From contig JBHLOY010000025.1 in assembly GCA_048939995.1 (NCBI GenBank), positions 1 through 22,433 of the forward strand: a DNA stretch of 22,433 nucleotides, read 5' to 3'. Position numbers and translations under genes: made by a program. Shown piece after piece: positions 3,946 to 21,090 of the stretch (the first letter of the stretch is position 1; each line of letters starts with the position of its first letter). This DNA is from Promethearchaeota archaeon. Its GTDB lineage: Archaea; Asgardarchaeota; Lokiarchaeia; Sigyniarchaeales; SOKP01. The notes under the pieces were generated by a model, which searched no databases, was not told the DNA's origin, and saw only the letters and a program-made list of their open reading frames with translations.

Positions 3946-3972
3946 TCTTTTTTAGGAGTTCAATCCTAAAAA
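3946..3972 (+). terminator. ileS terminator: oligo-T plus 9-bp inverted repeat
   Basis: TAA-TCTTTTTT directly after the stop; TTTTTAGGA (3949-3957) pairs with TCCTAAAAA (3964-3972) across a 6-nt loop. Confidence 0.55.
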
Positions 3973-3982
3973 TTTAATATTA
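3966..3982 (+). promoter_or_regulatory. Putative BRE/TATA promoter of the heptose-PPP operon
   Basis: CTAAAAATTTAATATTA: an A-rich BRE-like tract then TTTAATA, about 65 nt upstream of the hddA ATG. The identical 17-mer occurs at 10420-10436. Confidence 0.45.
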
Positions 3983-4046: not shown

Positions 4047-5060
4047 ATGATAATACGTTCAAAAGCTCCTTTCAGAATAAGTTTTGGAGGTGGTGGTACA
4101 GATTTGCCTCCCTATTGCACGGAACATGGAGGTTGTGTTATTAATACTGCTATTGATCGTCATGTTTATATTTCAGTTTCTCCTCGAAATGATAAAAGAA
4201 TTAGAATCGTATCTACCAATTTAAATGAACAATTTGAATTTAATGTCAAAGATAATAACTATTCTAACGGTTATGAACTATTTAAAGGTACGATTAATGT
4301 GTTAGATATCTCTGATGGATTCGATATTAACATCTACTCAGAATTACCAGCTGGGTCAGGAATGGGTGGCTCATCTACGCTAGTTGTTGCTTTAATAGGG
4401 GCTTTCAATGAATACTATCAAAATGAATTAACAAAGCACGAAATTGCGCAAAAAGCGTATGAAATCGAAAGGATTGAGCTAGAACAAAAAGGAGGTTATC
4501 AAGATCAGTTTGCAGCCGCTTATGGAGGTTTTAATTTTATGGAGTTTACTGATAAAGCGAAAATATCTCCTGTGGATACAACAGAGCAAATATTAAATGA
4601 ACTACAATTTCGATTAGTACTATGCTATGTAGGAGGTTCGCATTTTTCCTCAGATATTCAAGATGAAGTATTAGAAGGATATAAAGATGAGAGAAAAACG
4701 TTTATTGAGACTATGCAAGATTTGAAGGATGTTGCATATGAAATGAAAGCTTTAATTGAATCTAAAGATGTTAATCAATTGACTAAATTTGGAGAACTTC
4801 TACATAAAGGTTGGATGTCGAAAAAAAGCCTCAGTTCAAAAATCTCCAGTAAGAACATTGAAAATTTTTACTTAACTTCAAGAAAATTTGGTGTTATTGG
4901 CGGAAAATTGCTTGGTGCGGGCGGTGGGGGACATTTACTTTTATTTTCAGATCCAGAGAAAAAATTTAATGTCATAAACGAATTAAAAAAAATTGGAGGA
5001 ACTATAGTAAATTTTCATTTTAATCCTAAAGGATTAGAAGTTTGGAGATTAGGATCTTAA
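4047..5060 (+). CDS. hddA: GHMP kinase; D-glycero-alpha-D-manno-heptose-7-phosphate 1-kinase
   Basis: KAPFRISFGGGGTD, PAGSGMGGSS (GHMP P-loop), GGYQDQFAAAYGG and GKLLGAGGGG; lies directly upstream of gmhA/gmhB. Confidence 0.9.
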   Translation: MIIRSKAPFRISFGGGGTDLPPYCTEHGGCVINTAIDRHVYISVSPRNDKRIRIVSTNLNEQFEFNVKDNNYSNGYELFKGTINVLDISDGFDINIYSELPAGSGMGGSSTLVVALIGAFNEYYQNELTKHEIAQKAYEIERIELEQKGGYQDQFAAAYGGFNFMEFTDKAKISPVDTTEQILNELQFRLVLCYVGGSHFSSDIQDEVLEGYKDERKTFIETMQDLKDVAYEMKALIESKDVNQLTKFGELLHKGWMSKKSLSSKISSKNIENFYLTSRKFGVIGGKLLGAGGGGHLLLFSDPEKKFNVINELKKIGGTIVNFHFNPKGLEVWRLGS

Positions 5061-5081
5061 TTAATGATAAAGAGGATATTT

Positions 5082-5648
5082 ATGGAAAACGAAATAATTG
5101 CAATATTGAATGAAAGTATTAAAATAAAGGAAGGAATTAAGAATTTATCATCTTTAATAGCACAAATATCTAAAGTAATTATTAATGCTTTTAAAAATAA
5201 AAAAAAAGTAGTGCTGTTTGGAAATGGTGGTAGTGCTGCTGATGCCCAGCATATCGCTGCTGAATTTGTAGGAAAATTTTACAAGGATCGTGAATCTCTT
5301 CCAGCTTTGGCATTTCACACAAACTCATCAGTACTTACAGCAACTGCTAATGATTATGGATATGAATTTGTGTTTGAAAGACAAGTATCTGCTTTTGTTG
5401 AAAAAGGAGACATTACAATTGGAATTAGCACATCTGGGAATTCTACTAATGTAATAAAAGCTTTAAATAAAGCCAAAGAAAAAGGAGCAATTACGGTTGG
5501 TTTTACTGGGCAAAAAGAAAATAAAATGGAAAAAATTGTGGATTATTGTCTTAAAATGCCATCTGATGACACCCCTAGGATTCAAGAGGGACATATAACT
5601 GTAGGACATATTATATGTTATCTAGTTGAAAAGGAATTATTTTGTTAA
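5082..5648 (+). CDS. gmhA: Sedoheptulose-7-phosphate isomerase (phosphoheptose isomerase)
   Basis: GNGGSAADAQHIAAE, ANDYG, STSGNS and RIQEGH SIS-domain motifs. ATG 5082 is preferred because of GAGGA at 5072-5076; ATG 5064 is the alternative. Confidence 0.95.
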   Translation: MENEIIAILNESIKIKEGIKNLSSLIAQISKVIINAFKNKKKVVLFGNGGSAADAQHIAAEFVGKFYKDRESLPALAFHTNSSVLTATANDYGYEFVFERQVSAFVEKGDITIGISTSGNSTNVIKALNKAKEKGAITVGFTGQKENKMEKIVDYCLKMPSDDTPRIQEGHITVGHIICYLVEKELFC

Positions 5649-5651
5649 ATA

Positions 5652-6215
5652 ATGATGATAAATAGTAATAAGGCAATCTTTTTGGACAGAGATGGAGTAA
5701 TAAATGAGGAAGTAAATCATCTATCTAATCCTGATAATTTGCAATTCATTGAAGGATCCATCGAGGCTTTAAAAATCTTAAAGGATCTTGGATATCTCTT
5801 AATTGTAATTACCAATCAGGCAGGAATAGCAAAAGGATATTTCTCAGAAGCGATCCTTGATGAAATTCATGACAAGATGAAACGTATATTGTATGAAAAT
5901 AATGTAATATTGGATGCCATTTTTTTTTGTCCTCACCATCCTGATTTCACGGGACCATGCAATTGTAGAAAACCAAATCCAGGGATGATATTAAAAGCAA
6001 GAGATAAATATAATATTAATTTAAGAGAGTCATTTATGGTAGGAGATACCTTAAATGATATTGAAACTGGGTTAAGAGCAGAGTGTCAAACCGTATTGGT
6101 ATTAACAGGTTATGGGAAAGAAGAAAGAGATAAAATTGATGAAATTTTACCTGACTTTATCTTTGATAGTTTAATAGAATTTGCTAAAAATTTAAAAATG
6201 GATTCAAAATTATAG
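5652..6215 (+). CDS. gmhB: D-glycero-D-manno-heptose-1,7-bisphosphate 7-phosphatase (HAD IIIA)
   Basis: FLDRDGVIN, ITNQAGIAKG, Zn loop CPHHP...CNCRKP and MVGD. Confidence 0.93.
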   Translation: MMINSNKAIFLDRDGVINEEVNHLSNPDNLQFIEGSIEALKILKDLGYLLIVITNQAGIAKGYFSEAILDEIHDKMKRILYENNVILDAIFFCPHHPDFTGPCNCRKPNPGMILKARDKYNINLRESFMVGDTLNDIETGLRAECQTVLVLTGYGKEERDKIDEILPDFIFDSLIEFAKNLKMDSKL

Positions 6216-6245
6216 AGTATTAAAAAGACTAGATGTGACGTTAAA

Positions 6246-6902
6246 ATGAAATTCTTTATAGATACTGCTAATTTAGAACAAATTCAAGAAATGCAAGATT
6301 TGGGAATAATTGATGGAGTAACTACCAACCCTACTCTATTATCGAAAGAAGGCGCTGAACCTATAGAACAATTAAAAAAAATATGTGAAATTGTTGATGG
6401 CCCTGTAAGCGCGGAGGTTGTGGGGTTGAAAACTGAAGAGATGATAAGAGAAGCAAGAGAATTAGCAAAAATTGCTCCGAATATCGTTATAAAAATTCCT
6501 ATGACTAAGGATGGTATTAAAGCTGTGAAAATTCTTGAATCTGAAGGAATAAAAACTAATGTGACTTTAGTTTTTTCTCAAAATCAAGTTTTAATAGCGG
6601 CTAAAGCTGGAGCTTCTTATATAAGCCCTTTTATTGGAAGATTGATGGATGATGGGCAAGATGAAGTTGATATGTTATGGGAATCTATGCAAATTATCCA
6701 AGCATATGATTTTCAATCCGAAATAATTGTGGCCTCGGTGAGGAATTCTAGACATGTAATTGAAGCAGCAAAGATGGGAGCTCATATTGCTACAATACCT
6801 TTCAATGTTCTTGAAAAAATGTTTAAGCATCCAAGGACAGATGAGGGACTAAATTCGTTCCTTAAAGATTGGGAAAAATTACAAGCAAAATTAAAAAAAT
6901 AA
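6246..6902 (+). CDS. tal: Transaldolase, short (TalC/FSA-family) type
   Basis: FFIDTAN, GVTTNPT, Schiff-base VIKIP and ASVR. Glu in SAEV and Phe in SPFIGR are the transaldolase-type residues; FSA has Gln and Tyr there. Confidence 0.93.
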
Positions 6903-6910
6903 GTTTAAAA

Positions 6911-7909
6911 ATGGCTTTAGTTGATTTGCTATCAAAATGGAAAAATAAGAAAGTTCTAATCATTGGAGAAGCATTAATAGATAGATATATTTTTGGACAA
7001 GCAGATCGCATTTCTCCTGATGCTCCAGTCCCTAATGTGAAGATTGAGCGCCATGAGACATATTTAGGGGCAATTGGGTTAGTTATACAGTTTATTAAAG
7101 CTCTAGGTGGAGTTCCAGAGATATGTACTATTGTGGGAGATGACTATGAGGGTGATTTTTTTATTAAAAGAATAAAAGAGCTAAATATTGATCACTCGAA
7201 TATAATAATTGATAAAGATATTAATACTCCTCAAATTACTCGAATAAAGGCTAAGAATCAACACTTATTAAGATTAGAAACAGATTATTCGACAGAAATT
7301 TCAAACGAGACTATTACAAAATTCTTTGACACAATTAAATCCAATTTTAAAAGCATTGATTCAATAGTGATCTTGGACTATGGAGCAGGAGATTTATTTA
7401 AAGATGAATTTATCCCTAATTTATTAGGTTCTTTAAAAAAGAATTATAAAAACATACCTATAATTGCTCGCCCAAATATCTCAAACTATTATCTTTATGA
7501 AGATATTGATTTGATAAAAATTAATCTTCAAAAAGCCTTGACTAATTTCTCGATAGATTGTTGTACTGAAACTAGTATTATTATTGCTGGTAAACGCATC
7601 ATTAATTCATCACAATGCAAAAATCTTCTTCTAAATTATTTGGAAACTGAGTCATATTTATTCTATAAAGATCAAGAGAAAGTAGAAAGAATAAAACCAA
7701 TTTTAACACAACCTGCAAGAAGTTATGTGGCTGTTGGTAGCTCAATTATGGCAATATTAGGTCTTATTTATGCCGCGAACATATCAGTATTAGATGGAGT
7801 AAAGATTGCAATGTCGGCAGCAGCACTTTCAGCAACTCTTCCACCAATTGAATTTTTTAATCAGGAGACTTTAAAAAGTTATATTTTAACGATTTCTAAT
7901 AATCAATAA
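6911..7909 (+). CDS. RfaE/HldE kinase-domain (PfkB family) homolog with degenerate catalytic motifs; probable pseudokinase
   Basis: KVLIIGEALIDRYIFG-QADRISPDAPVP, TIVGDD, NQHLLRL and ILDYGAG match the HldE kinase domain, but the DVTGAGDT motif reads SYVAVGSS. ATG 6911 is preferred over TTG 6869, which overlaps tal. Confidence 0.82.
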   Translation: MALVDLLSKWKNKKVLIIGEALIDRYIFGQADRISPDAPVPNVKIERHETYLGAIGLVIQFIKALGGVPEICTIVGDDYEGDFFIKRIKELNIDHSNIIIDKDINTPQITRIKAKNQHLLRLETDYSTEISNETITKFFDTIKSNFKSIDSIVILDYGAGDLFKDEFIPNLLGSLKKNYKNIPIIARPNISNYYLYEDIDLIKINLQKALTNFSIDCCTETSIIIAGKRIINSSQCKNLLLNYLETESYLFYKDQEKVERIKPILTQPARSYVAVGSSIMAILGLIYAANISVLDGVKIAMSAAALSATLPPIEFFNQETLKSYILTISNNQ

Positions 7910-7918
7910 TAAAATTTC

Positions 7919-8776
7919 GTGTATAACATCGTGAAGCTTTCAAATAGTGAAGAAAAGCAAATTTCAGTGGAGTTAATAGATCTTAAAAAAGATATTTTAA
8001 AAATGATATACAATGCACAGTCTGGACACCCTGGGGGTTCATTATCATGCATAAATATACTGTTTGTTTTATATACTAAAATTATGAGATTTAAAAAGGA
8101 TGATCCTCAATGGGAAGATAGAGATATCTTTATTTTAAGTAAAGGTCATGCTGCACCAGCTTTATATGCTGTACTATCTAAGATAGGTCTTATAAAAAAA
8201 GAGGAATTACTTAACCTTAGAAAATTTGGATCTGATTTGCAAGGTCATCCCGTCAAAAATTCAAAGTTAGGAATAGAGATTTCTACCGGTTCTTTAGGAA
8301 TGGGTTTATCAGTAGGAGTGGGTTGTGCTTTAGCATTAAAACTAGATAAAAAAGATAATTTTGTCTACGTATTAGTAGGCGATGGAGAATTAAACGAGGG
8401 TGCAATCTGGGAAGCAGCAATGGCAGCTAACCATTACAAATTAGATAATTTAATTACAATTGTAGATCGAAATGGAATCCAAATTGATGGATCCACAGAA
8501 GAAATAATGGCTTTAGAACCCTTAGCTGAAAAATGGAAAGCTTTTGGATGGGAAGTGATTGAAGTAGATGGTTCAAATATTAATGAGACAATTCAAGCGT
8601 TTGAGAGATCTAAAAAAATTCTAAGAAAACCCAAAATTATTATCTCATATTTAGTCAAAGGTTCAGAAGTCTCATTTATGGAACATACAAAGAAATTCCA
8701 TGGACGAGCTCCTAATAAAGAGGAATTCGAAATGGCAATGAAAGAACTTGAAACATTAAGAAGCAGGTTGACTTGA
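7919..8776 (+). CDS. tkt: Transketolase, N-terminal (ThDP-binding) subunit
   Basis: SGHPGGSLS, RDIFILSKGHAAPALY, LQGHP, STGSLGMG and the ThDP motif GDGELNEG...DRN. Confidence 0.95.
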   Translation: MYNIVKLSNSEEKQISVELIDLKKDILKMIYNAQSGHPGGSLSCINILFVLYTKIMRFKKDDPQWEDRDIFILSKGHAAPALYAVLSKIGLIKKEELLNLRKFGSDLQGHPVKNSKLGIEISTGSLGMGLSVGVGCALALKLDKKDNFVYVLVGDGELNEGAIWEAAMAANHYKLDNLITIVDRNGIQIDGSTEEIMALEPLAEKWKAFGWEVIEVDGSNINETIQAFERSKKILRKPKIIISYLVKGSEVSFMEHTKKFHGRAPNKEEFEMAMKELETLRSRLT

Positions 8777-8787
8777 GGAATTCAAAA

Positions 8788-9717
8788 ATGGAAAATCAAG
8801 CACTTAGAGATACTTTTGGAGAATTTTTAATAAATGTAGGCAGAAAAAATGATAAAATTGTCGTTTTAGATTGCGATTTATCATCTTCTACTCGGACTAA
8901 TAAATTTGCTAAAGCATTTCCTCAGAGATTCTTTAATATGGGAATTGCAGAGCAAAATATGGTAGGAGTGGCATTAGGTCTGGCAATTTCTGGCAAGATA
9001 CCAGTAATAAGTGGATTCTCTATATTCACAACGGGAAGAGCTTGGGAATTCATACGTTTAGCATGTCATGATAACTTAAATCTTAAAATTATTACTACTC
9101 ATGGAGGAGTCGTAGGAGAAGATGGAAGCACTCATAACGCTTTAGAAGACTTAAGTTTGATGGCTAGCTTGCCAAATTTAAGAATATTAGTGCCATCTGA
9201 CAGTATAGAACTTTTAAAGATATTAGATTATAGTATGAACACATTTGGTCCATTTTATATAAGATTACCGAGAGGCAGCTTTCCTATTATTCATAAAAAT
9301 GATTATTCATTTTCTATAGGCGATCCTGATGTGATTAAGGAAGGTGAAGATTATGGTATTATTGGAAACGGTTATGGAACAGTTTTAGGAGTTAAATATG
9401 CAACTAAATTAGAGAATGAATTAAATTGTTCAATAAAACTGATTAATTTTCCCACAATCAAACCAATTAATCAAAAGAGGCTTCAAGGAGAATTAAAATC
9501 TCTTAAAGGGGTAATAATTATAGAAGAACATAATATATATTGTGGTTTTGGGAGTATATTGGCTCGAATACTCGCTGAAAGTGATCTAACAATGAAATTT
9601 ATAGGAATAGAAAATTCTTTTGGAAGTTCTGGTTCTAGAGAGGATATTTTAAATTTTCTTGGGCTTAATTATGAAAATATAAAAAAGAATCTATTAGAAT
9701 TAATCAAATCATTTTAA
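8788..9717 (+). CDS. tkt: Transketolase, C-terminal (pyrimidine-binding + C-terminal domain) subunit
   Basis: RFFNMGIAEQNMVG, GEDGSTH, GPFYIRLPR and IEEH..GFGS. ATG 8788 follows GAGGA (8775-8779); TTG 8773, overlapping the upstream TGA, is the alternative. Confidence 0.93.
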   Translation: MENQALRDTFGEFLINVGRKNDKIVVLDCDLSSSTRTNKFAKAFPQRFFNMGIAEQNMVGVALGLAISGKIPVISGFSIFTTGRAWEFIRLACHDNLNLKIITTHGGVVGEDGSTHNALEDLSLMASLPNLRILVPSDSIELLKILDYSMNTFGPFYIRLPRGSFPIIHKNDYSFSIGDPDVIKEGEDYGIIGNGYGTVLGVKYATKLENELNCSIKLINFPTIKPINQKRLQGELKSLKGVIIIEEHNIYCGFGSILARILAESDLTMKFIGIENSFGSSGSREDILNFLGLNYENIKKNLLELIKSF

Positions 9718-9734
9718 ATTAAGGTAGTTATTTC

Positions 9735-10361
9735 TTGAAAATGAAAGTAGCAGTTTCTATTCATGCCACAGAGAATTTTGATCCTAATAGTCTAACAGGA
9801 TTAAAAGGTTTAGATTATGTCCATATAGACGTTATGGATGGTAAATTTGTAAGTTCGGAAAATCTAAATTTTGATGTCTTTAAAGTCATAAAAGAAAAAT
9901 TTGAAATCCCTATAATAGCTCATCTAATGGTAAACAATCCATTAGATCATATATTTAATATAATTGAATTTTGTTATGCAATTCTTTTTCATTTTGAAAT
10001 TCAAGAAGATCTCAATTATATTATTAAAAAAATAAAGGAAAAAGGAAAGAAAGCCGGAATTGTTTTAAATCCAGAAACAGAAGTTTCTGAAGTATTGAAA
10101 TACCTCCCTTTATTAGATTTAGTTTTAGTTTTAGGTGTAAATCCAGGTTGGTCAGGTCAAAAATTTAAATTAAATACTATAAATAAAGTAAATGAATTAG
10201 CTACGTTTAAGAAACAATTCTCATTTCTAATTGATGTAGATGGCGGAATCGATCTCACAAATGCCCCATTATTGGAAAAAGCAGACATATTAACTAGCGC
10301 AAGCACAATTTTAAGAGCAAAAGATCCCAATAATGTAATTCTTAAATTAAAAGGTAGGTAA
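9735..10361 (+). CDS. rpe: Ribulose-phosphate 3-epimerase
   Basis: HIDVMDGKFV, AHLMV, VNPGWSGQ and VDGGI: the His/Asp/His/Asp metal ligands are retained. Start at TTG 9735 or ATG 9741. Confidence 0.92.
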   Translation: MKMKVAVSIHATENFDPNSLTGLKGLDYVHIDVMDGKFVSSENLNFDVFKVIKEKFEIPIIAHLMVNNPLDHIFNIIEFCYAILFHFEIQEDLNYIIKKIKEKGKKAGIVLNPETEVSEVLKYLPLLDLVLVLGVNPGWSGQKFKLNTINKVNELATFKKQFSFLIDVDGGIDLTNAPLLEKADILTSASTILRAKDPNNVILKLKGR

Positions 10362-10372
10362 TCTTTTTTTAT
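10362..10372 (+). terminator. Oligo-T terminator of the heptose-PPP operon
   Basis: TAA-TCTTTTTTT directly after the rpe stop, the same TAATCTTTTTT context as after ileS. Confidence 0.5.
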
Positions 10373-10419
10373 TAATAAAATTTAATTGCCATGTTTTGAG
10401 AAATAAATTATTATTTATT

Positions 10420-10436
10420 CTAAAAATTTAATATTA
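10420..10436 (+). promoter_or_regulatory. Putative BRE/TATA promoter of the flippase gene
   Basis: CTAAAAATTTAATATTA, identical to 3966-3982, about 53 nt upstream of ATG 10489. Confidence 0.45.
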
Positions 10437-10488
10437 ATATTTCCATCTATCATTTGATATCACAGAATTTAATTGAATATGTGGTTCT

Positions 10489-12147
10489 ATGGAAGAAGAT
10501 AAAGAAAGTAAGCAAAGGAAAAGGGAGATGGAACGGGAATACAAAAGTCTCGCTAAAAACTCCATCTTATCCTTCATCCATAGCTATAGCGGATTTTTTC
10601 TTTCGATAATCACTTCGTTTATCATGGCAAGAATAATCTCCCAGATAACTTGGGGCTTCTTAATTATTGCTTTATCTTATGTAGCAATCTTTACGTTAAC
10701 TCTTACATTTCTCCCTCCTAGCCTTGGCTTATCATTTAATTATTTCATTCCAAGAGACAGGGCTTTAAAACAAAATACAAAACTCAAATCTTTCATAAAA
10801 AAATCATTAATAATTAGATTATTCTTCGTACTTGCAACTTTTCTCGTCAGTCTCCTATTTATGTTTCTATTAATTGATATTTTTTCTATTGAAATCGGAG
10901 GTTATGAATATCTTCTTTATTTATTATCCCCATTAATAATCATTCAAGGTATAGATCAAGTATTTAACGATATACTTCGGGGATTCAACCTATTTACGAT
11001 TGTATATTATATGTTATTAGTAAGAAATCTCATTTATATTGGTGGTTTAATTTTCTTATTTTTAAATGTCAACTTAGTGAGTTTAACTAATATTTCAATT
11101 ATTTTTGTATTGTCAAATTTGATCCCGTTTATTATAGATTTTTTTATTATTTTTAGAATTCAACGGAAAATAAGAAATACTGAGGAGAGCCCACTTACAT
11201 TTAAAGATGTGTTTTCACGATTAATAAAATATGGATCCCATTTAAGTATTAAAACCTATTTAGATCGATTTACTAGGGAATTCAAAACAATATTAGTTGG
11301 CACATTTCAACTATCTGGAATAGTTACGGGGTATAATATTGGAGTGCACTATTCAGATGTTAGTTTTGAAGCTATTGGATCCTTTAATAGACCTTTAACT
11401 ATCTCATTTTCAAGTTTAGATGCCAAGAATAAAACTAAGGAAATTGAGGGCATTTACAGAAATCTCTTTCACTATGCTCAATTTTTTATCTTATTGATTT
11501 CTGGTTTTCTATTTTTTCTAACAGATATTTACCTTAGTCTTATTTATTCAGATTATTCAGAATCTTTTGCGTTATATTCAGTTATACTGAAAGTGTTAAT
11601 CTTGGCTACAATCTTCACTCTTAAACCTGCATTTTTTTACAGTCTTTTGAGAGCGAGTAATAAAGTGAAATACATCGTTCCGATTAGAATAATCAATTTC
11701 GTAATTAATCTTGTTATTTTTTTAGTTGGTTTAATATACTTTGGAATCATTGGTGCAGTAATCGCAGTAATAATTGGAAATATATTCTCTTTTGTCCTCT
11801 TTACCTTTCTAGTTTTGAAGTTGTTTAATATCAAATTGGATGTATACAAAACAATTTGTCTCTATACATCATTCTTTTTTGCTTTGGGATTCTCTCTATT
11901 TTTGGAGAAACTTTTTCTTGCTGAGTTTAATTATTTTATTCTTAAGAACTTGCATCTCTTATTTCTCCAAGATTTTCAATTTTTAACTCTGATAACCTTT
12001 TTAATACTCTTCTTTTTATTTTTAATTTTGCTCGATATTTTCTCAGCAACAGATCTCACAAATTTGGAATCAATTTTTAGTAAAGACAATTTTATCGATA
12101 AAATAATAAGAAAGAGTTTGAGATTATTAAAGAAAGTTATAAAATAA
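10489..12147 (+). CDS. Oligosaccharide flippase (Wzx/MOP superfamily polysaccharide export protein)
   Basis: 552 aa with roughly 12-14 hydrophobic segments; LAKNS..SF and IMARII N-terminal pattern, FGIIGAVIA near the C-terminus; sits in a glycan locus. Confidence 0.85.
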   Translation: MEEDKESKQRKREMEREYKSLAKNSILSFIHSYSGFFLSIITSFIMARIISQITWGFLIIALSYVAIFTLTLTFLPPSLGLSFNYFIPRDRALKQNTKLKSFIKKSLIIRLFFVLATFLVSLLFMFLLIDIFSIEIGGYEYLLYLLSPLIIIQGIDQVFNDILRGFNLFTIVYYMLLVRNLIYIGGLIFLFLNVNLVSLTNISIIFVLSNLIPFIIDFFIIFRIQRKIRNTEESPLTFKDVFSRLIKYGSHLSIKTYLDRFTREFKTILVGTFQLSGIVTGYNIGVHYSDVSFEAIGSFNRPLTISFSSLDAKNKTKEIEGIYRNLFHYAQFFILLISGFLFFLTDIYLSLIYSDYSESFALYSVILKVLILATIFTLKPAFFYSLLRASNKVKYIVPIRIINFVINLVIFLVGLIYFGIIGAVIAVIIGNIFSFVLFTFLVLKLFNIKLDVYKTICLYTSFFFALGFSLFLEKLFLAEFNYFILKNLHLLFLQDFQFLTLITFLILFFLFLILLDIFSATDLTNLESIFSKDNFIDKIIRKSLRLLKKVIK

Positions 12148-12149
12148 AA

Positions 12150-13400
12150 TTATAAATTTTTGAAAAAATCAACGTAATCGTTAATTATATTCTTCCAATT
12201 ATATTTTTCAACAACTCTTTGGTGGCCCTTTTCACCCATAGATTTTCTAACTTGTTCATTTTCAAGTAAAAATATAATTTTCTGAATTAATTCTTCTAGG
12301 TTATTTGGCTTTATAAGAATACCAGTTTCCCCATCAACTACGGATTCTGAAACGCCAATAATTTTTGATCCTATTACTGGAACTTTATAGTAGTTAGCTT
12401 CTAAGTAAACTACCCCAAAACCTTCAATTGAATTTTTTTCTCTCGCAGATGGCATTAAAAACAAATCAGATAATTTATAGAATTTATTTCGTTTCAATAC
12501 ACCACATTCCCCTAAAAAGATTACTTCCTCTTGTAATCTCAACTGTTTTGTTAACTCTTTTAGCATCGGTGTAGCTTCACCATCTCCAATTAAATAATAT
12601 TTCAATTTAAGATCAGGAAATCTTTTTTTAATCTCATAAACAGCCCGTATAACTAAATCGAATTTTTTTCTTAAAACTTGGCGACCAACGCTTAATAGCA
12701 CAAAAATATCTTTTGGAATATTGAATTCATTTCTTAATTCTTCTTTTGTTTGATAAAGATTATAATCTTCTAAATTTATACCTGTTCTTACAATAGAAAA
12801 TTTATTATCGTCTAAATTGTGCATTTTCTTCATCATATCTTTAAGACTATACGTGTGGACCATAAATTTATCTATGTTTCTATAGAAATAAGTTCTTAGA
12901 GATAATCTTTTATGAATTATTACATCATTACCATGCGCAAACGATACTAACTTCAGATTATACAACTTAGACACTAAAAAAGCCAGCGGTAAAATTTTTC
13001 CTCCCGAATGGCCTCCAAATATTACATCAGGATTTAACTTTTTTAAAATGGGCTCAAATTGAATGCTCTTTTCTGTTATATAGCTTAAAATTTTAGGCTT
13101 TATTAATAAATATAAAATAATTTTTAATCTATGGGAAAACGGTACTTGTTTAGCTCCCAATAATCTCCAAATCGCTAAGATTATAACCTTCCAGAACTTC
13201 CTTGACTTTAATAAATTAAAATTAATCTTTTTATCGCTGGATTTTAGAGGAAATCGATAAATATTTTTACCACTTATGAAAGGATTAAAGACGTATAATT
13301 TATACTCCTTATCTTTAAAAAATTTGCATAGATATGTCAATGTATGCGAAATACCACCTAAATTTGGATAAAAATCATCTGTAATCAATACAATCCTCAT
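12150..13400 (-). CDS. Glycosyltransferase family 4 (GT-B, retaining)
   Basis: DFYPNLGGI, FAHGND, SVGRQVLRKK and the EX7E motif EGFGVVYLEA; ends with YNW. Confidence 0.92.
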   Translation of the reverse strand: MRIVLITDDFYPNLGGISHTLTYLCKFFKDKEYKLYVFNPFISGKNIYRFPLKSSDKKINFNLLKSRKFWKVIILAIWRLLGAKQVPFSHRLKIILYLLIKPKILSYITEKSIQFEPILKKLNPDVIFGGHSGGKILPLAFLVSKLYNLKLVSFAHGNDVIIHKRLSLRTYFYRNIDKFMVHTYSLKDMMKKMHNLDDNKFSIVRTGINLEDYNLYQTKEELRNEFNIPKDIFVLLSVGRQVLRKKFDLVIRAVYEIKKRFPDLKLKYYLIGDGEATPMLKELTKQLRLQEEVIFLGECGVLKRNKFYKLSDLFLMPSAREKNSIEGFGVVYLEANYYKVPVIGSKIIGVSESVVDGETGILIKPNNLEELIQKIIFLLENEQVRKSMGEKGHQRVVEKYNWKNIINDYVDFFKNL

Positions 13401-13546
13401 AAATCTTCGTCTGATTGTAGTTTTCTGCTATTTATTTTTTTATTATCTATTAAGATACTTGAATTACCAAGATATCTTACATTACTAAATATTTTTAATA
13501 AAATCATATAACTTTTAGGATTTTTATGCTTTAATCATCTTTTTTT

Positions 13547-14284
13547 TTATGATAAAGATATTTTTTGCCATACAAAACATGCGTTACAGTTCACACCCAA
13601 CGAAATTCTATCCTCTTTAGCATTCGAAATTGTTTTTGCTTTATCGAGATCACACCTAATCCAATTATTTGAATTATCGCGGAAAAAATATTCTTCATAA
13701 ATCAACTTTAAATCTCCTTGATCGAACAGTGAGCTTATTTCTTCATATGTAAAGGATCTCATGAAATCATCTTCATACTTTTTACCAAAGGGAACAGTAA
13801 CAATTAATTTTCCATCGAGCTTTAATAATTTAGAAAGCTTCTTACAAATCTCTTTAAGAGCAAACTCATTTCTTGCTTGTTTATAGGCTTTTAACCCAAT
13901 ATGTTCTAAGACAGAGATTGAAATGATATAATCAAACTTTTCTTCTTCCTCAAAATTTAATAGATTAGTTTGATGAAAAGTAAGATTTGGGTGTTTTAAA
14001 ATATATTTTCTAAGGTCAATTCCTACTACTTCATAACCTAAGACAGCAAGTTGTAAGGCAACATAGCTCTTAGCGCATCCAAATTCAAGTACTCTTTTCC
14101 CTTTACCATCTAAATCGATAAAGTGGTGAATGAATGGAAGTTCAAAGATTTTTGGGCTGATATGCCAATGTCCAGAAATATATCTAACTGGTAAATTAAA
14201 AAATTTGGGATAGTTAACGCTATTTAACTTAAAATATTTTAACAACTGATTAAGTTTTTTTCTTATAATCCTTGGAATTCTCAA
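13547..14284 (-). CDS. Class I SAM-dependent methyltransferase, probably glycan-modifying
   Basis: Motif I VLEFGC, VVGIDLR, FDYIISISVLEHIGL and LKLDGKLIVTVP; TTG start. Confidence 0.85.
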   Translation of the reverse strand: MRIPRIIRKKLNQLLKYFKLNSVNYPKFFNLPVRYISGHWHISPKIFELPFIHHFIDLDGKGKRVLEFGCAKSYVALQLAVLGYEVVGIDLRKYILKHPNLTFHQTNLLNFEEEEKFDYIISISVLEHIGLKAYKQARNEFALKEICKKLSKLLKLDGKLIVTVPFGKKYEDDFMRSFTYEEISSLFDQGDLKLIYEEYFFRDNSNNWIRCDLDKAKTISNAKEDRISLGVNCNACFVWQKISLS

Positions 14285-14343
14285 ATTATTTCAATTTTTT
14301 TTGTAATATTAAATTTTAAAGTAAAAAAAATTTTCATATAAGA

Positions 14344-15336
14344 TTATATTCCATCAATTTTACCTTTCCAATATTCTCTATGCCTTTCTAAATCCAGAAT
14401 TAAATGGCTCTTTATTTCAGAAAAGTTATATTCTTCATGATCCTGGATATTTAGAGAGTTATATTCATTAGGATCATGTACCTTTATATTTGGTATAATC
14501 CCTTCTCGTGAAAATTCGTTTGCCCATTTTAACAACATTTCCTGTTTCTTTTTATGCTCAAAAATATGAGCAAACCCTCCACTTGCCATGACAGGTATGC
14601 ATCCATGGCTTCTACCACCTATATAATATTTACATGCACTATATAAACTTTTATATGCTTTATAGTCGCTATTATAAAAAATGGGTTCCTCAAATAGTTG
14701 TTTTGCTCTAATATACTCAAATGGCTCGTGCACTGATATGATCGAAATTTTTTCTTTAATCTGTTCATAAAGATTCATGTAAAAATCACGAAATTTATCA
14801 ATTAATAAAGGAGTAAAAATTACATCTTCTTTTTTTCCTTCATGTTTATAATTCGCATGGAAAGCTGGATCAAAAAACCATTTTGCGTCTATATTAGCGG
14901 ATTTTAAATATTTCATTGCCCAGATATCCCTTACCGTGGCACCCTTAATCAATTTTTTTTCATTAGCTTTTTTAATAATATTTATAATATAATCAGCTTG
15001 ATACATTCCAACGCCAACAATATAAATGGGTATATTAAATTTTATACATAGCTTATATACTTTTAATAATGTATTTCCCCATTCTGGGGTTCCAGCAACA
15101 ATAAAAGCATTAACATACTTAATTAAATCATTAATTTGCGGATAATTCCTTTGTAACCTCCATTGAGGAGTCCAACGATATCCTTCTTCCTTATCTTTAA
15201 CAGAAATTTGATTTCGGTTTAGCCATAAGATTGAACTTTTAGGATCAATCTCCAATACATTATATACACCTTCTCGAATTAAATCATCACCAAGATTCCA
15301 ACCACTAGTTGTACTTAATATTATCATGTTTTCCAA
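14344..15336 (-). CDS. Polysaccharide pyruvyltransferase family protein
   Basis: NLGDDLI, GVG, TVRD, DPAF and GRSHG motifs; TTG start preceded by AGAGAGG. Confidence 0.8.
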   Translation of the reverse strand: MENMIILSTTSGWNLGDDLIREGVYNVLEIDPKSSILWLNRNQISVKDKEEGYRWTPQWRLQRNYPQINDLIKYVNAFIVAGTPEWGNTLLKVYKLCIKFNIPIYIVGVGMYQADYIINIIKKANEKKLIKGATVRDIWAMKYLKSANIDAKWFFDPAFHANYKHEGKKEDVIFTPLLIDKFRDFYMNLYEQIKEKISIISVHEPFEYIRAKQLFEEPIFYNSDYKAYKSLYSACKYYIGGRSHGCIPVMASGGFAHIFEHKKKQEMLLKWANEFSREGIIPNIKVHDPNEYNSLNIQDHEEYNFSEIKSHLILDLERHREYWKGKIDGI

Positions 15337-15378
15337 TCAAACCTCTCTAAGTTCTTAAATATTTAATTAATCACAATT

Positions 15379-16254
15379 CTAATAGTACCCATAATATCTC
15401 ATTAAATCTCCTGCAATAAGGTTAAATTTGTGCATTTGTTCGGGTTCCCAATTTTTCCAATGCGGAAGTTTAAAAGAACGTGTTTTATTAATCTTTTCTG
15501 ACAAAAGTGTATCTAGCTTCGATCTTTTTAAATCTAAGGAATAATCTAACTCAAAAAAATCCAATATTTTTTGAATTCCACTATAATTTTGCTTAAATAG
15601 ATCTTCAAAATGGATTATCATCGCTTTATTATCATCTTTTATAGCCTCTTGGATAAAACGATTAATTTTCTGCCATTTCCAAGCAAATCTTTCTAATTGA
15701 CTCATATGGTTCCATAGATCTCGATATGGATCATCCTTGAAATCGATAGCTCGAATCCGCCAGATATCCTTCATAATATTGTTTATTCTTAGTAAATTTA
15801 ATTTACGATACCAGTCAGTATTAATAGGGATCATTCTCAGTACATCTACTAAAGGTAAAGAAGTTTTAAAAACAAAAGATTCTTGAATTCCGCGACTCAA
15901 GGCTGATCTTAACCATTCTCTCCCATCTCTCACAATGTGGATAATTCTATAATCTGAAAAGATTTTTTTAATAATGGGGATAAGGGTGCTAAGATACGGA
16001 TTGGATTCAATATACGTTGCTTCTTGCACATTGTTGTATAGATTATATCTTAATTTGAGAAATTCTTGTGTTGCGTTCTCCAAAGAAATCTTCCCTACTT
16101 CAAACCTATATCTCAATTTCAAGAAATTAATTTCTGGTTCATGCCTAACATCAATATCGTTGAATAAATTATTCAATAAATAAACTAAAAATTTAGTACC
16201 AGTTCTTCCAGTAGAAACGATAAATCTAGGAGTAAAGCCTTGCCAAATTGTCAT
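15379..16254 (-). CDS. PAPS-dependent sulfotransferase
   Basis: 5'-PSB loop FIVSTGRTGTKFL, HEP, 3'-PB motif IIHIVRDGREWLRS and IHFEDL. Confidence 0.87.
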   Translation of the reverse strand: MTIWQGFTPRFIVSTGRTGTKFLVYLLNNLFNDIDVRHEPEINFLKLRYRFEVGKISLENATQEFLKLRYNLYNNVQEATYIESNPYLSTLIPIIKKIFSDYRIIHIVRDGREWLRSALSRGIQESFVFKTSLPLVDVLRMIPINTDWYRKLNLLRINNIMKDIWRIRAIDFKDDPYRDLWNHMSQLERFAWKWQKINRFIQEAIKDDNKAMIIHFEDLFKQNYSGIQKILDFFELDYSLDLKRSKLDTLLSEKINKTRSFKLPHWKNWEPEQMHKFNLIAGDLMRYYGYY

Positions 16255-16397
16255 TTGAAATTAAAATAATATGTAGTTTAATTAAAAGACCATTATCTAT
16301 GGATAGAAAGTTATAATTAATAATAGCGGAATTAAAATAAATTTTTTCTTAATGTATAAGTGAAAATTAGATTCGACTACCATGTTTTAATTTTTTA

Positions 16398-17276
16398 TTA
16401 CTTCTCTTCTTCCCAATTATAATCAACATTTAAATAATCATATAATTGTAGGTTATATGGTTTGAAATACTCTTTCAAATATTCACTCATTTTCTCATCC
16501 ATTTTTGTATATTCATGAGAAAACACTTTTTTGAATTGTTTATGTTTCATTTTGGGTAAGCCTAAGAATTCATAGACTCTATTCATTACATCCTGAGGAT
16601 AACGATACATCTCTTCGCTTTTAATTACTAAAATCTGCTCTTTGGGGAAATATTTATACCAGTTTTTGATTTGATTTACATATATCCCTCTAGTTAGATA
16701 TGAATAATTGGCATATTTTCTACTTCTATATTTTCTACTTTTAATAATCTTATCTTTTTCTCCTTTTAATCTTTCAGTTTCTTTCTTTATAGCTTCTTCA
16801 AAAGTTAAATTTTCGCGTTTATTTCTTACAGAATGATTATAATGAGAATAGGCTCTTTTTACGGGATTTCTTAAAAGAATTATTATTTTAACTTTTGGCA
16901 ATAATGAATAAATCCTTTGAGGAACAAGGGGATGAAAAATATAATAAGGAGATTTCTCTCCGGTAATAAAATTAATTTTTTTAAATTTCCTATAGAATTG
17001 TCTACTAATTTTTGTAGGAAAATAAGATTTGTACCAATTAATTCCATTATAAAAATGGTTATCGAAAAAGTGAATTTCTTTTTGGTATGCGGGTATTTTG
17101 ATATATGGATGCTCTGATAAAAAATTAATCAAAAAGCTAGTTCCACTTTTCATTGCTCCCGCAATGATAAAGTCTGGTAAAACTCTAGCATTATTGGTTA
17201 ATTTTCTAAATAAATTTATCAATTTTATTCTAAGCTTATGAGGAAGAAAAAAAAATCTATTTATGATTTTCTCCAT
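16398..17276 (-). CDS. PAPS-dependent sulfotransferase of the heparan-sulfate 3-O-ST / NDST sulfotransferase-domain type
   Basis: LPDFIIAGAMKSGTS (5'-PSB), KEIHFFD, GEKSPYY, LLRNPVKRAYSHY (3'-PB), NWYKYFPKEQILVI and LKEYFKPYN. Confidence 0.92.
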   Translation of the reverse strand: MEKIINRFFFLPHKLRIKLINLFRKLTNNARVLPDFIIAGAMKSGTSFLINFLSEHPYIKIPAYQKEIHFFDNHFYNGINWYKSYFPTKISRQFYRKFKKINFITGEKSPYYIFHPLVPQRIYSLLPKVKIIILLRNPVKRAYSHYNHSVRNKRENLTFEEAIKKETERLKGEKDKIIKSRKYRSRKYANYSYLTRGIYVNQIKNWYKYFPKEQILVIKSEEMYRYPQDVMNRVYEFLGLPKMKHKQFKKVFSHEYTKMDEKMSEYLKEYFKPYNLQLYDYLNVDYNWEEEK

Positions 17277-17464
17277 AACAGATCTAATTAATTTTCCATT
17301 CAGTTAGATAAAATGAATTAAAAGAAATTTAAGTATTTTATTTTTATCTATTCAATTTTAATGCTTTCACTTTTTAATTTCAAATAAAAAGACTTAAGAA
17401 TTTTTTAAAAGAAAATAAAAGAAAATATTACAAAATTAAATAATAACCTTAACTTTATTTCTTA

Positions 17465-18667
17465 ATGGATATATTAAAGCTAGTAATTCAGACTACTAAT
17501 TTAATATTTAACTCATTATCCAGATACCCATTTATTCTTTTCATTGTAGGTATAATTTTTGGATATCATTTGGTTCTTAATTTAATGAGAGACACAAAAT
17601 ATGTTAAAAAGATACAAAAACTTCAAGATTCAAATAAATATCTTATTGATGATTTAATTTCAAAACCATTAATTAATTTTATAGTACCTGCATGGAAAGA
17701 AGATCAAGTTTTGAACAAGACTTTAACCAAATTATTAAATTTATCTTATACAAATTATAGAGTTATTATAAACGCGGGGGGTAATCAAGAGACAATTCAA
17801 ATCGCAGATTCTTTTAAAAAATATGATAATTTTCTAATTCTAAAACAACAAGCGGGAAAAGGAAAAATTAGAGCGATTAATGATGCCCTAATTCAAATAG
17901 AAGAAGGAATAGTCTTTTTAATCGATGCTGATGTTCAATTGAACGATCAATTTCTTATAGATATGATTTTTCCTATTATTAATAAAAATGAATTCGTGGT
18001 CACCTCTCATCTTAAGCCTCATCATTCAATAAAGGATAAGGATCTAGTAAAATTTCTTTATACAGATAGAAATAGCAAATTTAGGAAAAAGATGGAAAGA
18101 TATATTGATGTGGTTGGTATAAATACAGCAATGAAATATGAAGTAATTGAAAAAGTAACACAATTTACTGAAGCTAAATTTTCAGATGATAATCGAGTAA
18201 TTGGCAAAGATTTAAGATCAAATGGTTATAAAATCTATTATATTGCTAATTTAATCGGAGAAACTTATAATTATCCTCAAACAATTTCTAATTTTATACC
18301 TCAACAGTTAAGATGGATGGAAAATGCATATTATAGAAGGAGAGAAGAGGGAAAGAAATTTTTTATTATTAAGAAGATTTTAGCCACGTTAATTTCAATT
18401 TATTTAATCATTTTTCCATTCCTCATATTTAACATTAATTTGATAATGATTTGCTTATATATTTTATTCTTTATCTATTTAGAAAAAATAAGAAAAATTA
18501 TTTTCTTTAAAAAAACTGATGCTGTCTCTTTGGAGATCAAATTTGGATTAAAATTTTACCTAAAATTATTTTTTTACATTTATCTTAAAGCAATCTTAAA
18601 CATATTGGTTATAATAGAGATAATTTTCTTTAAAAAGCGATATAAAAAACGAAAAAATATTGAATAG
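17465..18667 (+). CDS. Membrane-embedded glycosyltransferase family 2 with QxxRW motif (hyaluronan/cellulose/PNAG-synthase-like)
   Basis: One N-terminal TM segment; IVPAWKE, GKIRAIN, IDAD (DxD), SDD (in place of TED) and QQLRW (18302-18316); 2-3 C-terminal TM segments. Confidence 0.85.
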   Translation: MDILKLVIQTTNLIFNSLSRYPFILFIVGIIFGYHLVLNLMRDTKYVKKIQKLQDSNKYLIDDLISKPLINFIVPAWKEDQVLNKTLTKLLNLSYTNYRVIINAGGNQETIQIADSFKKYDNFLILKQQAGKGKIRAINDALIQIEEGIVFLIDADVQLNDQFLIDMIFPIINKNEFVVTSHLKPHHSIKDKDLVKFLYTDRNSKFRKKMERYIDVVGINTAMKYEVIEKVTQFTEAKFSDDNRVIGKDLRSNGYKIYYIANLIGETYNYPQTISNFIPQQLRWMENAYYRRREEGKKFFIIKKILATLISIYLIIFPFLIFNINLIMICLYILFFIYLEKIRKIIFFKKTDAVSLEIKFGLKFYLKLFFYIYLKAILNILVIIEIIFFKKRYKKRKNIE

Positions 18668-18699
18668 CATTATCTTCTTTATTACATAAATGAATCGTG

Positions 18700-20010
18700 T
18701 TAACTTTTAAAAATATTTGGTCCTTCTCCTTTCATATAATCGAATTTAGGCTTACCAAATAATTTGAGAATTATAGGTGCAATATCTTTATAATCAATCA
18801 AATCAATCGACCCTTTCTTAACATCTTTACCGTACGCCATAAAAAAACCTCGATTTGTATGACTAAAGACTTCTGTATTTCTTTTCAAGAAATAAGAACA
18901 CTCTTTGAACAAAATATAATTATCCTTAAGGGCAATGAGAAAATCTGGAAAACCTGCTTTATCATATTCATATATATTTTCGATATACTTATCTTTTTTA
19001 AGAACTTCTTTTATTTGTGTTTTTTTCTGCTCATCATCTCCAAATAGAAATAAAGCACCCATATTTGAAGTCAACTTTTGAATGAAGGTTTTTGGTTTTG
19101 TTTTATCAAAGAATTGTAGTTTTCGGTCTTTTTTTCTGTCCACCTCTCTTTTTTCAGCATTAAATAATTTTCGATAGATTCTTTTTGAAACTGATATTGG
19201 CATAAGAGGTCTTATAATATCATATAGTTTCAATATTAGGCTATTGATCCTTTTACCTTTTAAATCGTTTAGAAAAAGTAATCCTCTTTTTTCTAATAAC
19301 CTGGGAAAATATAGAACTTTTTTATAAAACTTCAAACCGTGGTCACTTAGAATCAAAATATTATCAAAATTTTCATATTTAAGTAATTCTCCAAGGAAAT
19401 CATCAATTTTTCCATAACCCAAGTTCATTGCATTTAATATTTCTTTTCTATCCCCTACCACATAATGAGAAATTGAATCTGGAACTCTTATTACATAGAC
19501 AAGCATATTAAAATCTTCTCCCATTTTTTTTAAAAATAAATTCTTCTTAATTTCGAATGCTTTTAAGATTTCTGTGAGATTATTTCCCTCAATTATCCAA
19601 TTATCTTTAATTGCATTTTCTAATTCTTTCGGATAACAAGAAATTGAAGGTGAAAGAATTCCTGTTATCATTTCTCCATTTATTGGCCAAGCAGGGTAAG
19701 TACCGGGGACATTTAAAGCCAATATCTTTAAATCCTTTAAAGAAAATATTGATTTCTCTTTCCATACAAGTGAACTAAACATTCCTTTAATGGGATGAAT
19801 AAAGGTATAATATCCTAAATCTACAACGTCCAAACCCGAAAATAGACATGGCCAAGAGGGTATTGTAGCGTGTGGAACAGTCACTTGAAGAGGGGCACTA
19901 AATCCATTATCAATGATTTTCTTAAAATTCGGGAGTTTATTTTGTTTTACTAGTGGCAAAATACTTTCAAAACAACCTCCATCCATTCCTATAATTATAT
20001 TCTTTATTAT
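18700..20010 (-). CDS. Alkaline-phosphatase superfamily, nucleotide pyrophosphatase/phosphodiesterase-like enzyme
   Basis: (KNIIIG)MDG, TVPHATIPSW (Thr nucleophile), PDSISH, LSDHG and a C-terminal His in FSHT. The conserved first strand lies upstream of ATG 19986, so the start is probably a non-canonical ATA/ATT at 20007-20013. Confidence 0.85.
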   Translation of the reverse strand: MIKNIIIGMDGGCFESILPLVKQNKLPNFKKIIDNGFSAPLQVTVPHATIPSWPCLFSGLDVVDLGYYTFIHPIKGMFSSLVWKEKSIFSLKDLKILALNVPGTYPAWPINGEMITGILSPSISCYPKELENAIKDNWIIEGNNLTEILKAFEIKKNLFLKKMGEDFNMLVYVIRVPDSISHYVVGDRKEILNAMNLGYGKIDDFLGELLKYENFDNILILSDHGLKFYKKVLYFPRLLEKRGLLFLNDLKGKRINSLILKLYDIIRPLMPISVSKRIYRKLFNAEKREVDRKKDRKLQFFDKTKPKTFIQKLTSNMGALFLFGDDEQKKTQIKEVLKKDKYIENIYEYDKAGFPDFLIALKDNYILFKECSYFLKRNTEVFSHTNRGFFMAYGKDVKKGSIDLIDYKDIAPIILKLFGKPKFDYMKGEGPNIFKS

Positions 20011-20013
20011 AAT

Positions 20014-20018
20014 TCACC
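20014..20018 (-). promoter_or_regulatory. Archaeal Shine-Dalgarno GGTGA for the phosphodiesterase-like gene
   Basis: The minus strand reads GGTGA-ATT-ATA-ATA-AAG-AAT-ATA-ATT-ATA-GGA-ATG. Confidence 0.5.
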
Positions 20019-20136
20019 AGATTAAAGGAATAAATTGAGTTTATTAAATTAAATTGATAAAACCTAAAAAAATTTGTTGAAAATAATAGTTTTCATTTTT
20101 TTTAACTAATATTTTTAATTATACTCTCTAACTGAT

Positions 20137-20164
20137 TGAAATGTGATATCATTATCGCATTTCA
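20137..20164. promoter_or_regulatory. 28-bp inverted repeat (operator-like or hairpin) in a divergent intergenic region
   Basis: TGAAATGTGATA-TCAT-TATCGCATTTCA; 11 of 12 positions are complementary and the mismatch would be a G-U pair; followed by T5. Confidence 0.5.
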
Positions 20165-20296
20165 TTTTTAAACCTAAATTTTTAGAAGATCTTAGGAAAA
20201 AAAGAAAAATCTAATAGGTTGCTAATCTTTAATCCAATAATGAAAAAAAGGGATTCCTCTTATAATTAAAAATCATCCTAGTTTTGTGAATGAATT

Positions 20297-21037: not shown

Positions 21038-21090
21038 AATATAATTTAACTATATTTCAAAAAAATTCTTAAACTGATTTAATTATTAAA

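Follow-up and report, generated by a model that had tools for sequence, protein, structure and literature searches.

An eight-gene operon in a Lokiarchaeia genome joins genes for heptose phosphate synthesis to non-oxidative pentose phosphate pathway (PPP) genes. Precursor supply for heptose synthesis is probably the main role of its transketolase (Tkt) and transaldolase (Tal), and the operon would then be a self-contained cassette for heptose phosphate that is accessory in one Lokiarchaeia family. The window analyzed is the complete 22.4-kb contig C32 of a 3.75-Mb genome that is 98% complete. Open reading frame (ORF) calls and family matches place eight tightly packed genes at positions 4047 to 10361, all on the plus strand and in the order hddA, gmhA, gmhB, tal, pfkB, tktN, tktC, and rpe, with intergenic gaps of 3, 3, 30, 5, 9, -4, and 17 nt. 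An earlier annotation of this DNA, hereafter the first-pass annotation, had described eight co-oriented genes separated by about 30 nt or less, and the largest gap is indeed 30 nt. The enzymes themselves are of known kinds. What is new is the fused accessory organization, the dependence of Tkt and Tal on the cassette within the family, a conserved HldA-like protein in which the catalytic aspartate is replaced by serine, and the absence of an activation enzyme.

The first three genes encode the predicted heptose enzymes. The hddA product (4047 to 5060, plus strand) is an HddA-like GHMP sugar kinase, predicted to be a D-glycero-alpha-D-manno-heptose-7-phosphate 1-kinase from its match to NF049969 (253 bits over the full length; equivalog cut-off 600) and its full-length matches to the structures 4n3o, 4usk/4usm, and 3k85 (195 to 210 bits). 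Its stretch PAGSGMGGSS, which we take to be the GHMP-type GSG..GSS stretch, aligns with the counterpart in 4n3o, and the gene is present as a single copy in the genome. The gmhA gene (5064 to 5648, plus strand) encodes a predicted sedoheptulose-7-phosphate (S7P) isomerase that scores 189 bits against TIGR00441 (cut-off 209) and 178 bits against the phosphoheptose isomerases 2xbl/2x3y, with the AQHIAAEFV (His/Glu) and QEGH stretches aligned. The third gene, gmhB (5652 to 6215, plus strand), encodes a predicted heptose-1,7-bisphosphate 7-phosphatase of the HAD-IIIA type, which scores 201 bits against NF006506 (cut-off 178) and 167 bits against TIGR00213 (cut-off 150). A paralogous HddA-like GHMP kinase (33 to 38% identity) is found in most genomes of the window's genus, including those that lack the cassette, and is sometimes located divergently beside it (loci L102, L103, and L113); it is absent from the window's genome. 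In an unrelated context, one other genome carries a second GmhA copy (G064:C162, locus L141, 6024 to 6593) that scores 204 bits and is 53% identical.

The tal gene (6246 to 6902, plus strand) encodes a short-type transaldolase (PF00923, 213 bits; TIGR00875, 306 bits with a cut-off of 246). Assignment as a fructose-6-phosphate aldolase was rejected because the transaldolases 1vpx, 3r8r, and 3s0c match at 230 to 278 bits, compared with about 114 bits for the aldolase. Across the class, this high-scoring Tal type was found only within the module. Tkt is split into an N-terminal, thiamine pyrophosphate-binding subunit, TktN (7919 to 8776, plus strand; PF00456, 180 bits; NF004559, 306 bits), and a C-terminal, pyrimidine-binding subunit, TktC (8773 to 9717, plus strand; PF02779 and PF02780; NF004559, 246 bits), with the start of tktC overlapping the stop of tktN by 4 nt. 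The last gene, rpe (9735 to 10361, plus strand), encodes a divergent member of the ribulose-phosphate 3-epimerases (PF00834, 133 bits; NF004076, 163.9 bits with a cut-off of 165). The first-pass annotation had asked whether these were the only tkt, tal, and rpe copies, and each of the three is present once in the genome. A second, lower-scoring TAL_FSA-family protein (about 145 bits, about 225 amino acids), which may be FSA-like, is found in many genomes of the class with or without the cassette, such as G012 (C37:20741-21346), and not in the window's genome.

Elsewhere the genome has genes for a bifunctional Fae-HPS (534 bits), another HPS-like protein, a PHI-like protein (148 bits, cut-off 160), RpiA (contig C7), and the 2-amino-3,7-dideoxy-D-threo-hept-6-ulosonate (ADH) synthase of the aromatic pathway that is independent of erythrose-4-phosphate (340 bits, cut-off 299). 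The genome search found no 3-deoxy-D-arabino-heptulosonate 7-phosphate (DAHP) synthase I. In archaea, ribulose monophosphate-type genes, RpiA, and ADH synthase suffice to provide ribose-5-phosphate and aromatic amino acids without Tkt and Tal. The presence of these alternatives together with the lack of a DAHP synthase suggests that core metabolism in this organism is independent of Tkt and Tal. The full non-oxidative PPP set is also present, consisting of Tkt, Tal, RpiA, and an Rpe of borderline score.

The distribution of the cassette was followed in 161 species-level genomes of the class, 135 of which make up one family. A PfkB orthologue is present in 68 and GmhA in 64 of the 161, strong Tkt_N matches (E of 1e-33 or better) were found in 65 family genomes, and nearly all carriers of the three markers belong to that family. 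Within it, GmhA, the PfkB protein, and Tkt occur together in 59 genomes, always on one contig and within a few kilobases, and all three are missing from 65, which include several members of the window's genus that are 100% complete. The 11 discordant genomes are fragmentary, and where they were inspected the missing gene would fall beyond or near a contig end. In one family genome (G101), the sole Tkt sequence is a fragment truncated at a contig end. Two single-contig genomes of the sister family (4.4 and 6.04 Mb) yielded no GmhA, HldA-like, or strong Tkt match. Among the high-quality genomes of the class, 21 to 22 of 40 carry the markers. Since the cassette-less relatives also lack Tkt and module-type Tal, both enzymes appear to exist in this family mainly for S7P supply. 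Among 400 Asgard genomes, GmhA was found outside the family only twice, and a GmhA match in another Asgard family (G307) was rejected as a module because no further module gene is located nearby. Rather than an Asgard-wide trait, the module is restricted to a single Lokiarchaeia family, and a sister family holds a partial copy. Statements in metabolic reconstructions that a non-oxidative PPP is present should be reread in this light, as Tkt and Tal travel with the heptose genes and appear dispensable for core metabolism in this family.

Gene order ties the two halves of the cassette together. The first-pass annotation proposed a synteny survey among relatives, and more than 11 genera show a conserved or interleaved order. 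Members of the window's genus keep the arrangement ileS-hddA-gmhA-gmhB-tal-pfkB-tktN-tktC at 60 to 97% identity. Twelve loci from ten other genera most commonly have the order hddA-gmhA-rpe-gmhB-tal-pfkB-tktN-tktC, and individual loci among them lack gmhB or tal or contain inserts. A PPP gene is thus interleaved with the heptose genes, as rpe directly follows gmhA in 10 of the 12, usually between gmhA and gmhB. One insert, in G055 (L097, 10460 to 16373), places 6 kb between tal and gmhB, encoding a family 2 glycosyltransferase (GT2), a TSP3-repeat/EF-hand protein, and two unknown proteins. Another, in G111 (L112, 10540 to 11523), is a short-chain dehydrogenase/reductase (SDR) epimerase gene between pfkB and tktN.

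In two cassette-less genomes that are both 100% complete (G012 and G008), ileS is directly followed by the SDR gene that in G022 follows tktC. Because ileS and the SDR gene are joined in this way, hddA to tktC form a clean seven-gene presence/absence block. Recurrent SDR epimerase/dehydratase genes next to the module were also considered as heptose-tailoring enzymes and rejected as not cassette-specific, because cassette-less genomes carry the same gene after ileS. The partial copy, gmhB-pfkB-tktN-tktC, was found in a single sister-family genome. Divergence of the module roughly parallels that of ileS, and a tree of the concatenated module groups roughly by genus label, is poorly resolved, and is compatible with vertical descent or with transfer within the family. 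This pattern would fit an old ancestry with repeated loss of the cassette without being decisive for it.

The first-pass annotation took Tkt, Tal, and Rpe together as a dedicated heptose precursor module. This view stands for Tkt and Tal, given their sole copies, their co-presence with GmhA and PfkB, and the alternatives available to the core pathways, but not for Rpe, which is also found in cassette-less relatives. Rpe of the divergent or canonical type is present in 98 of the 161 class genomes. Many cassette-less members of the genus, which have no transketolase, carry it in a purE-rpiA-rpe unit that has an FGGY sugar kinase gene as its neighbor (for example L120 of G012, 4957 to 8365, and L121, L123, L126, L127, and L130). 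In cassette-less G151, rpe-orf552 still follows ileS and hddA to tktC are gone. The window's genome has purE-rpiA without rpe, which suggests that rpe moved beside the cassette in this lineage. Rpe is attached to the cassette in the window's lineage and is not exclusive to it.

It is unlikely that tal and tkt, with or without rpe, form an ordinary non-oxidative PPP for the interconversion of pentoses and hexoses, beside which the heptose genes are located only because S7P arises there. Such a dual-purpose pathway would be in keeping with the sole copies of tkt and tal, through which all PPP flux must pass, and with the position of Rpe in relatives, next to rpiA and to a gene for an FGGY sugar kinase, as this indicates that pentose-phosphate metabolism matters in the family. 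Tkt is also found without heptose genes in sister families (G028 and G047). Within the family, however, no well-assembled genome was found with Tkt or module-type Tal and without GmhA, and the 65 relatives without the markers, including the complete ones, manage without Tkt and Tal. The two halves are also interleaved, with rpe between gmhA and gmhB and the HldA-like gene between tal and tktN, and gain or loss affects all seven genes of the block as a unit, all of which argues for the precursor role.

In the proposed pathway, the split transketolase and transaldolase, aided by Rpe and by RpiA encoded elsewhere, would convert fructose-6-phosphate (F6P) and triose phosphate to S7P. The standard stoichiometry of this conversion is 4 F6P to 3 S7P and 1 glyceraldehyde-3-phosphate. 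GmhA would then isomerize S7P to D-glycero-D-manno-heptose-7-phosphate, the HddA-like GHMP kinase would phosphorylate O1, and GmhB would remove the 7-phosphate to give heptose-1-phosphate. An unlinked nucleotidyltransferase would activate this product for the neighboring, probably sulfated, surface-glycan machinery. Beyond the observed gene content, single copies, co-occurrence, synteny, and active-site substitutions, we infer the flux direction, anomer, final product, and use in glycans. GmhA, HddA, GmhB, and HddC form the known pathway to GDP-D-glycero-alpha-D-manno-heptose, which serves bacterial S-layer glycans, capsules, and O-antigens in organisms such as Aneurinibacillus thermoaerophilus, Campylobacter jejuni, and Burkholderia pseudomallei (WcbL). 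The first three enzymes of the cassette are of the same families, with homology over the full length to HddA-type kinases of solved structure (4n3o, 4usk, 3k85) and to GmhA, and glycan genes adjoin in both cases. Unlike that pathway, the Lokiarchaeia module has no HddC-type guanylyltransferase in or near it, and it contains its own transketolase, transaldolase, usually Rpe, and an extra HldA-like protein.

This extra protein is encoded by pfkB (6908 to 7909, plus strand) and is assigned as an HldA/RfaE-domain-I-like protein of the PfkB fold from TIGR02198, an alignment to 4e84, and an AlphaFold2 (AF2) model. A start at the listed TTG (6869) would overlap tal, and the orthologues measure 332 amino acids, so the ATG at 6908 is taken as the start. 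The best model is RfaE domain I (TIGR02198, 154 bits with a cut-off of 345), and the closest relative in both sequence and fold is Burkholderia HldA (4e84). The AF2 model (pLDDT 94) has this structure as its best Foldseek match (E of 1.7e-25, TM of 0.79 to 0.84), indicating a ribokinase-like fold. Its N-terminal DRISPDAPVP is kept, and DRISP(D/E)APVP, presumably the substrate lid of HldA structures, is near-invariant in all aligned HldA-like relatives. At the catalytic positions of the alignment to 4e84, the protein has AVGS in place of GAGD and NLQK in place of NxxE.

The change of the catalytic Asp to Ser, at residue 278 of this protein, is found in 119 of 120 orthologues, the lone exception being truncated. 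GAGD is retained in 114 of the 130 nearest cluster representatives at 50% identity, and Gly-Ser is limited to the PfkB protein of the Lokiarchaeia family and its four closest clusters, one of which is named Promethearchaeota. The gene called 'rfaE' in the first-pass annotation therefore probably does not encode a working kinase, as the GAGD aspartate is lost and the NxxE glutamate is replaced by lysine. The protein is conserved as much as its neighbors (55 to 81% identity), which argues that it is functional, and it probably does not work as a conventional kinase. The pfkB gene is located directly 5′ of tktN in the Lokiarchaeia family, and it has this position in Bathyarchaeia and in the partial copy of the sister family as well, despite an otherwise differing order. 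Taken together, these features suggest a non-catalytic partner with a binding or regulatory role, or a mechanistically altered enzyme, that would be coupled to TktN. With its Asp-to-Ser change kept in over 100 sequence clusters, the HldA-like protein is an obvious candidate for a pseudo-enzyme or a new enzyme.

The operon is followed by a glycan locus. Its first gene, orf552 (10489 to 12147, plus strand), encodes a polytopic membrane protein of 552 amino acids with about 10 hydrophobic segments and without a Pfam or NCBIfam match. The rest of the locus (12150 to 22431, no strand assigned) encodes a GT4, a methyltransferase, a pyruvyl transferase, two sulfotransferases, a GT2, a phosphodiesterase-family protein, a CmcI-type O-methyltransferase, and a sulfatase. 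The operon had been described as abutting a flippase/glycosyltransferase locus, and the glycosyltransferase part is correct, but 'flippase' goes beyond a polytopic protein that matches no Pfam family. In six loci of other genera, genes for the synthesis of 3′-phosphoadenosine-5′-phosphosulfate (PAPS) flank the module. The flanking genes encode ATP sulfurylase, adenosine 5′-phosphosulfate (APS) kinase, and a phosphodiesterase-family protein, in some cases together with a TauE exporter (e.g., L112, 13312 to 16433; L097, 1042 to 5671), and in the window's genome the sulfurylase/APS-kinase set is located on contig C2 (6507 to 9616). The PAPS genes, together with the two sulfotransferases and the sulfatase of the window, point to sulfated glycans.

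From the cassette, a seven-carbon sugar is predicted to be made by roughly half of the species of a large Lokiarchaeia family but not by their relatives, and its probable use is in a sulfated surface glycan. Asgard archaea are the closest known prokaryotic relatives of eukaryotes, and their surface chemistry is little known. A tentative reading that would join these parts, and that we consider somewhat unlikely as a whole, is that the HldA-derived pseudo-kinase (or enzyme of a new reaction) is a heptose phosphate-binding protein that couples or regulates the adjacent split transketolase. This would create a feedback-controlled channel from S7P to heptose and on to a sulfated heptose surface glycan, with activation by a nucleotidyltransferase of a type not yet tied to heptose.

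Several observations weigh against heptose supply as the role of the cassette. No nucleotidyltransferase was found within 10 kb of the module in any fetched locus, none of the eight NTP_transferase genes of the window's genome reaches the HddC model (best 118 bits, cut-off 300), and the HldC/RfaE domain II equivalog is also absent from this genome (best 52 bits, cut-off 181.5), so that nucleotide activation marks a gap step in the heptose pathway. By comparison, an HddC-like gene is located directly upstream in about half of 76 other hddA loci fetched from named, mostly bacterial, genomes. The nucleotidyltransferases of the window's genome include ManC-like (C13:90596-91288) and GlmU-like ones. 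The 98%-complete genome also has no match to the GT9 heptosyltransferases (PF01075). HddA and GmhA both score below their equivalog cut-offs, many relatives have Rpe without Tkt, and the heptose route does not account for the second kinase of the cassette, which appears to be crippled. Co-occurrence alone equally allows the PPP to serve heptose synthesis and heptose genes to be present only where the PPP exists.

A lack of nucleotidyltransferase together with two kinase-like genes would also suit a catabolic cassette, in which heptoses salvaged from bacterial cell-wall debris in the sediment are phosphorylated, converted to S7P by the reversible GmhA, and passed by Tal, Tkt, and Rpe to glycolysis. 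These last three enzymes are the exact set for S7P disposal, and genes for sugar uptake and glycoside hydrolases are found near rpe in relatives. We nevertheless regard salvage as very unlikely, because GmhA, an HddA-type 1-kinase, and GmhB form the canonical anabolic trio, in which GmhB has no obvious catabolic role, and because the surroundings of the module include no conserved transporter or glycosidase gene. The neighbors build glycans (glycosyltransferases, sulfotransferases, PAPS synthesis), and the PfkB protein lacks the catalytic Asp of a working kinase. More improbable still is that the product is a heptose derivative in soluble form (a compatible solute, precursor of a cofactor, signaling nucleotide-sugar, or secondary metabolite) in place of a glycan block. 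No nucleotidyltransferase or heptosyltransferase is linked, and the conserved non-canonical PfkB protein could run a new step, but glycan genes recur as neighbors in Lokiarchaeia and in a Bathyarchaeia locus, and the module contains no conserved gene for a cyclase, a reductase, or another tailoring enzyme.

Heptose supply for a glycan, the reading preferred here, can also be set beside other known systems. The PfkB protein shares its sequence, fold, and DRISP(D/E)APVP stretch with the pathway to ADP-L-glycero-beta-D-manno-heptose with split HldA and HldC (Burkholderia HldA, 4e84). It differs in having Ser for the GAGD Asp and Lys for the NxxE Glu, and the genome has no HldC, HldD, or GT9. An archaeal non-oxidative PPP with a split transketolase is that of the Methanocaldococcus jannaschii type, known for this gene arrangement, and the Lokiarchaeia cluster likewise has TktN and TktC, a short transaldolase, and Rpe together. 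Unlike the M. jannaschii type, it is accessory (present in half of the family), interleaved, and never apart from the heptose genes in the family.

The nearest HddA outside the Lokiarchaeia (44% identity) is located on the Bathyarchaeia contig CAYNQS010000005.1 (L144), in the order GT2-hldA-tktN-rpe-tktC-tal-hddA-gmhA-gmhB-SDR-GT2 (4171 to 13850). The same eight functions are encoded there on one strand, with GT2 and a GDP-mannose-dehydratase-like SDR adjoining, no nucleotidyltransferase, and the pfkB-type gene directly before tktN. In contrast to the Lokiarchaeia cassette, the order is hldA-tktN-rpe-tktC-tal-hddA-gmhA-gmhB, the HldA-like protein keeps GAGD (121 bits on PfkB), and Rpe is canonical (234 bits). 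Sets of HddA, GmhA, and GmhB without Tkt were found on contigs of Methanobacteriota, Hadarchaeota, Methanomassiliicoccus, and DPANN. Heptose has been described in the N-glycan of Thermoplasma (PMC11407970) and heptose biosynthetic enzymes in archaea generally (PMC11573728). The papers found in our literature search described neither a heptose-PPP operon nor heptose in Asgard archaea.

Upstream of the operon, an AT-rich, BRE/TATA-like promoter element is located at 3966 to 3982 (plus strand), 65 nt before the start codon of hddA, in a region that is conserved upstream of hddA in close relatives. The exact 17-mer CTAAAAATTTAATATTA has just two copies in the 3.75-Mb genome, both in the window, before hddA and before orf552. 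The second is at 10420 to 10436 (plus strand), 53 nt before orf552, and the 17-mer may act as a common promoter through which cassette and glycan locus are co-regulated. A run of seven T residues at 10364 to 10370 (plus strand), directly 3′ of the rpe stop codon, is a candidate archaeal terminator. The first-pass annotation had noted one TATA-like element and one oligo-T; both are present, but the oligo-T is not the sole one of its kind, since runs of 6 to 9 T residues are also found within the operon (5920 to 5928, 7156 to 7162, and others). Judged from this layout, co-transcription of the eight genes is plausible.

The first-pass annotation had treated the contig as archaeal rather than bacterial, and this was borne out, since orthologues of its genes carry the names of Lokiarchaeota/Promethearchaeota metagenome-assembled genomes. 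A bacterial or contaminant origin was rejected because ileS and the gene before it, which encodes an RWD/UBC-like protein, are syntenic with relatives at 73 to 90% identity. In the window, the RWD/UBC-like gene is followed by ileS and then by the eight-gene operon from hddA. The RWD/UBC-like gene (2 to 661, 5′ of ileS) is truncated by the start of the contig. In relatives, it encodes 552 to 581 amino acids, and the RWD-ileS pair is kept across genera.

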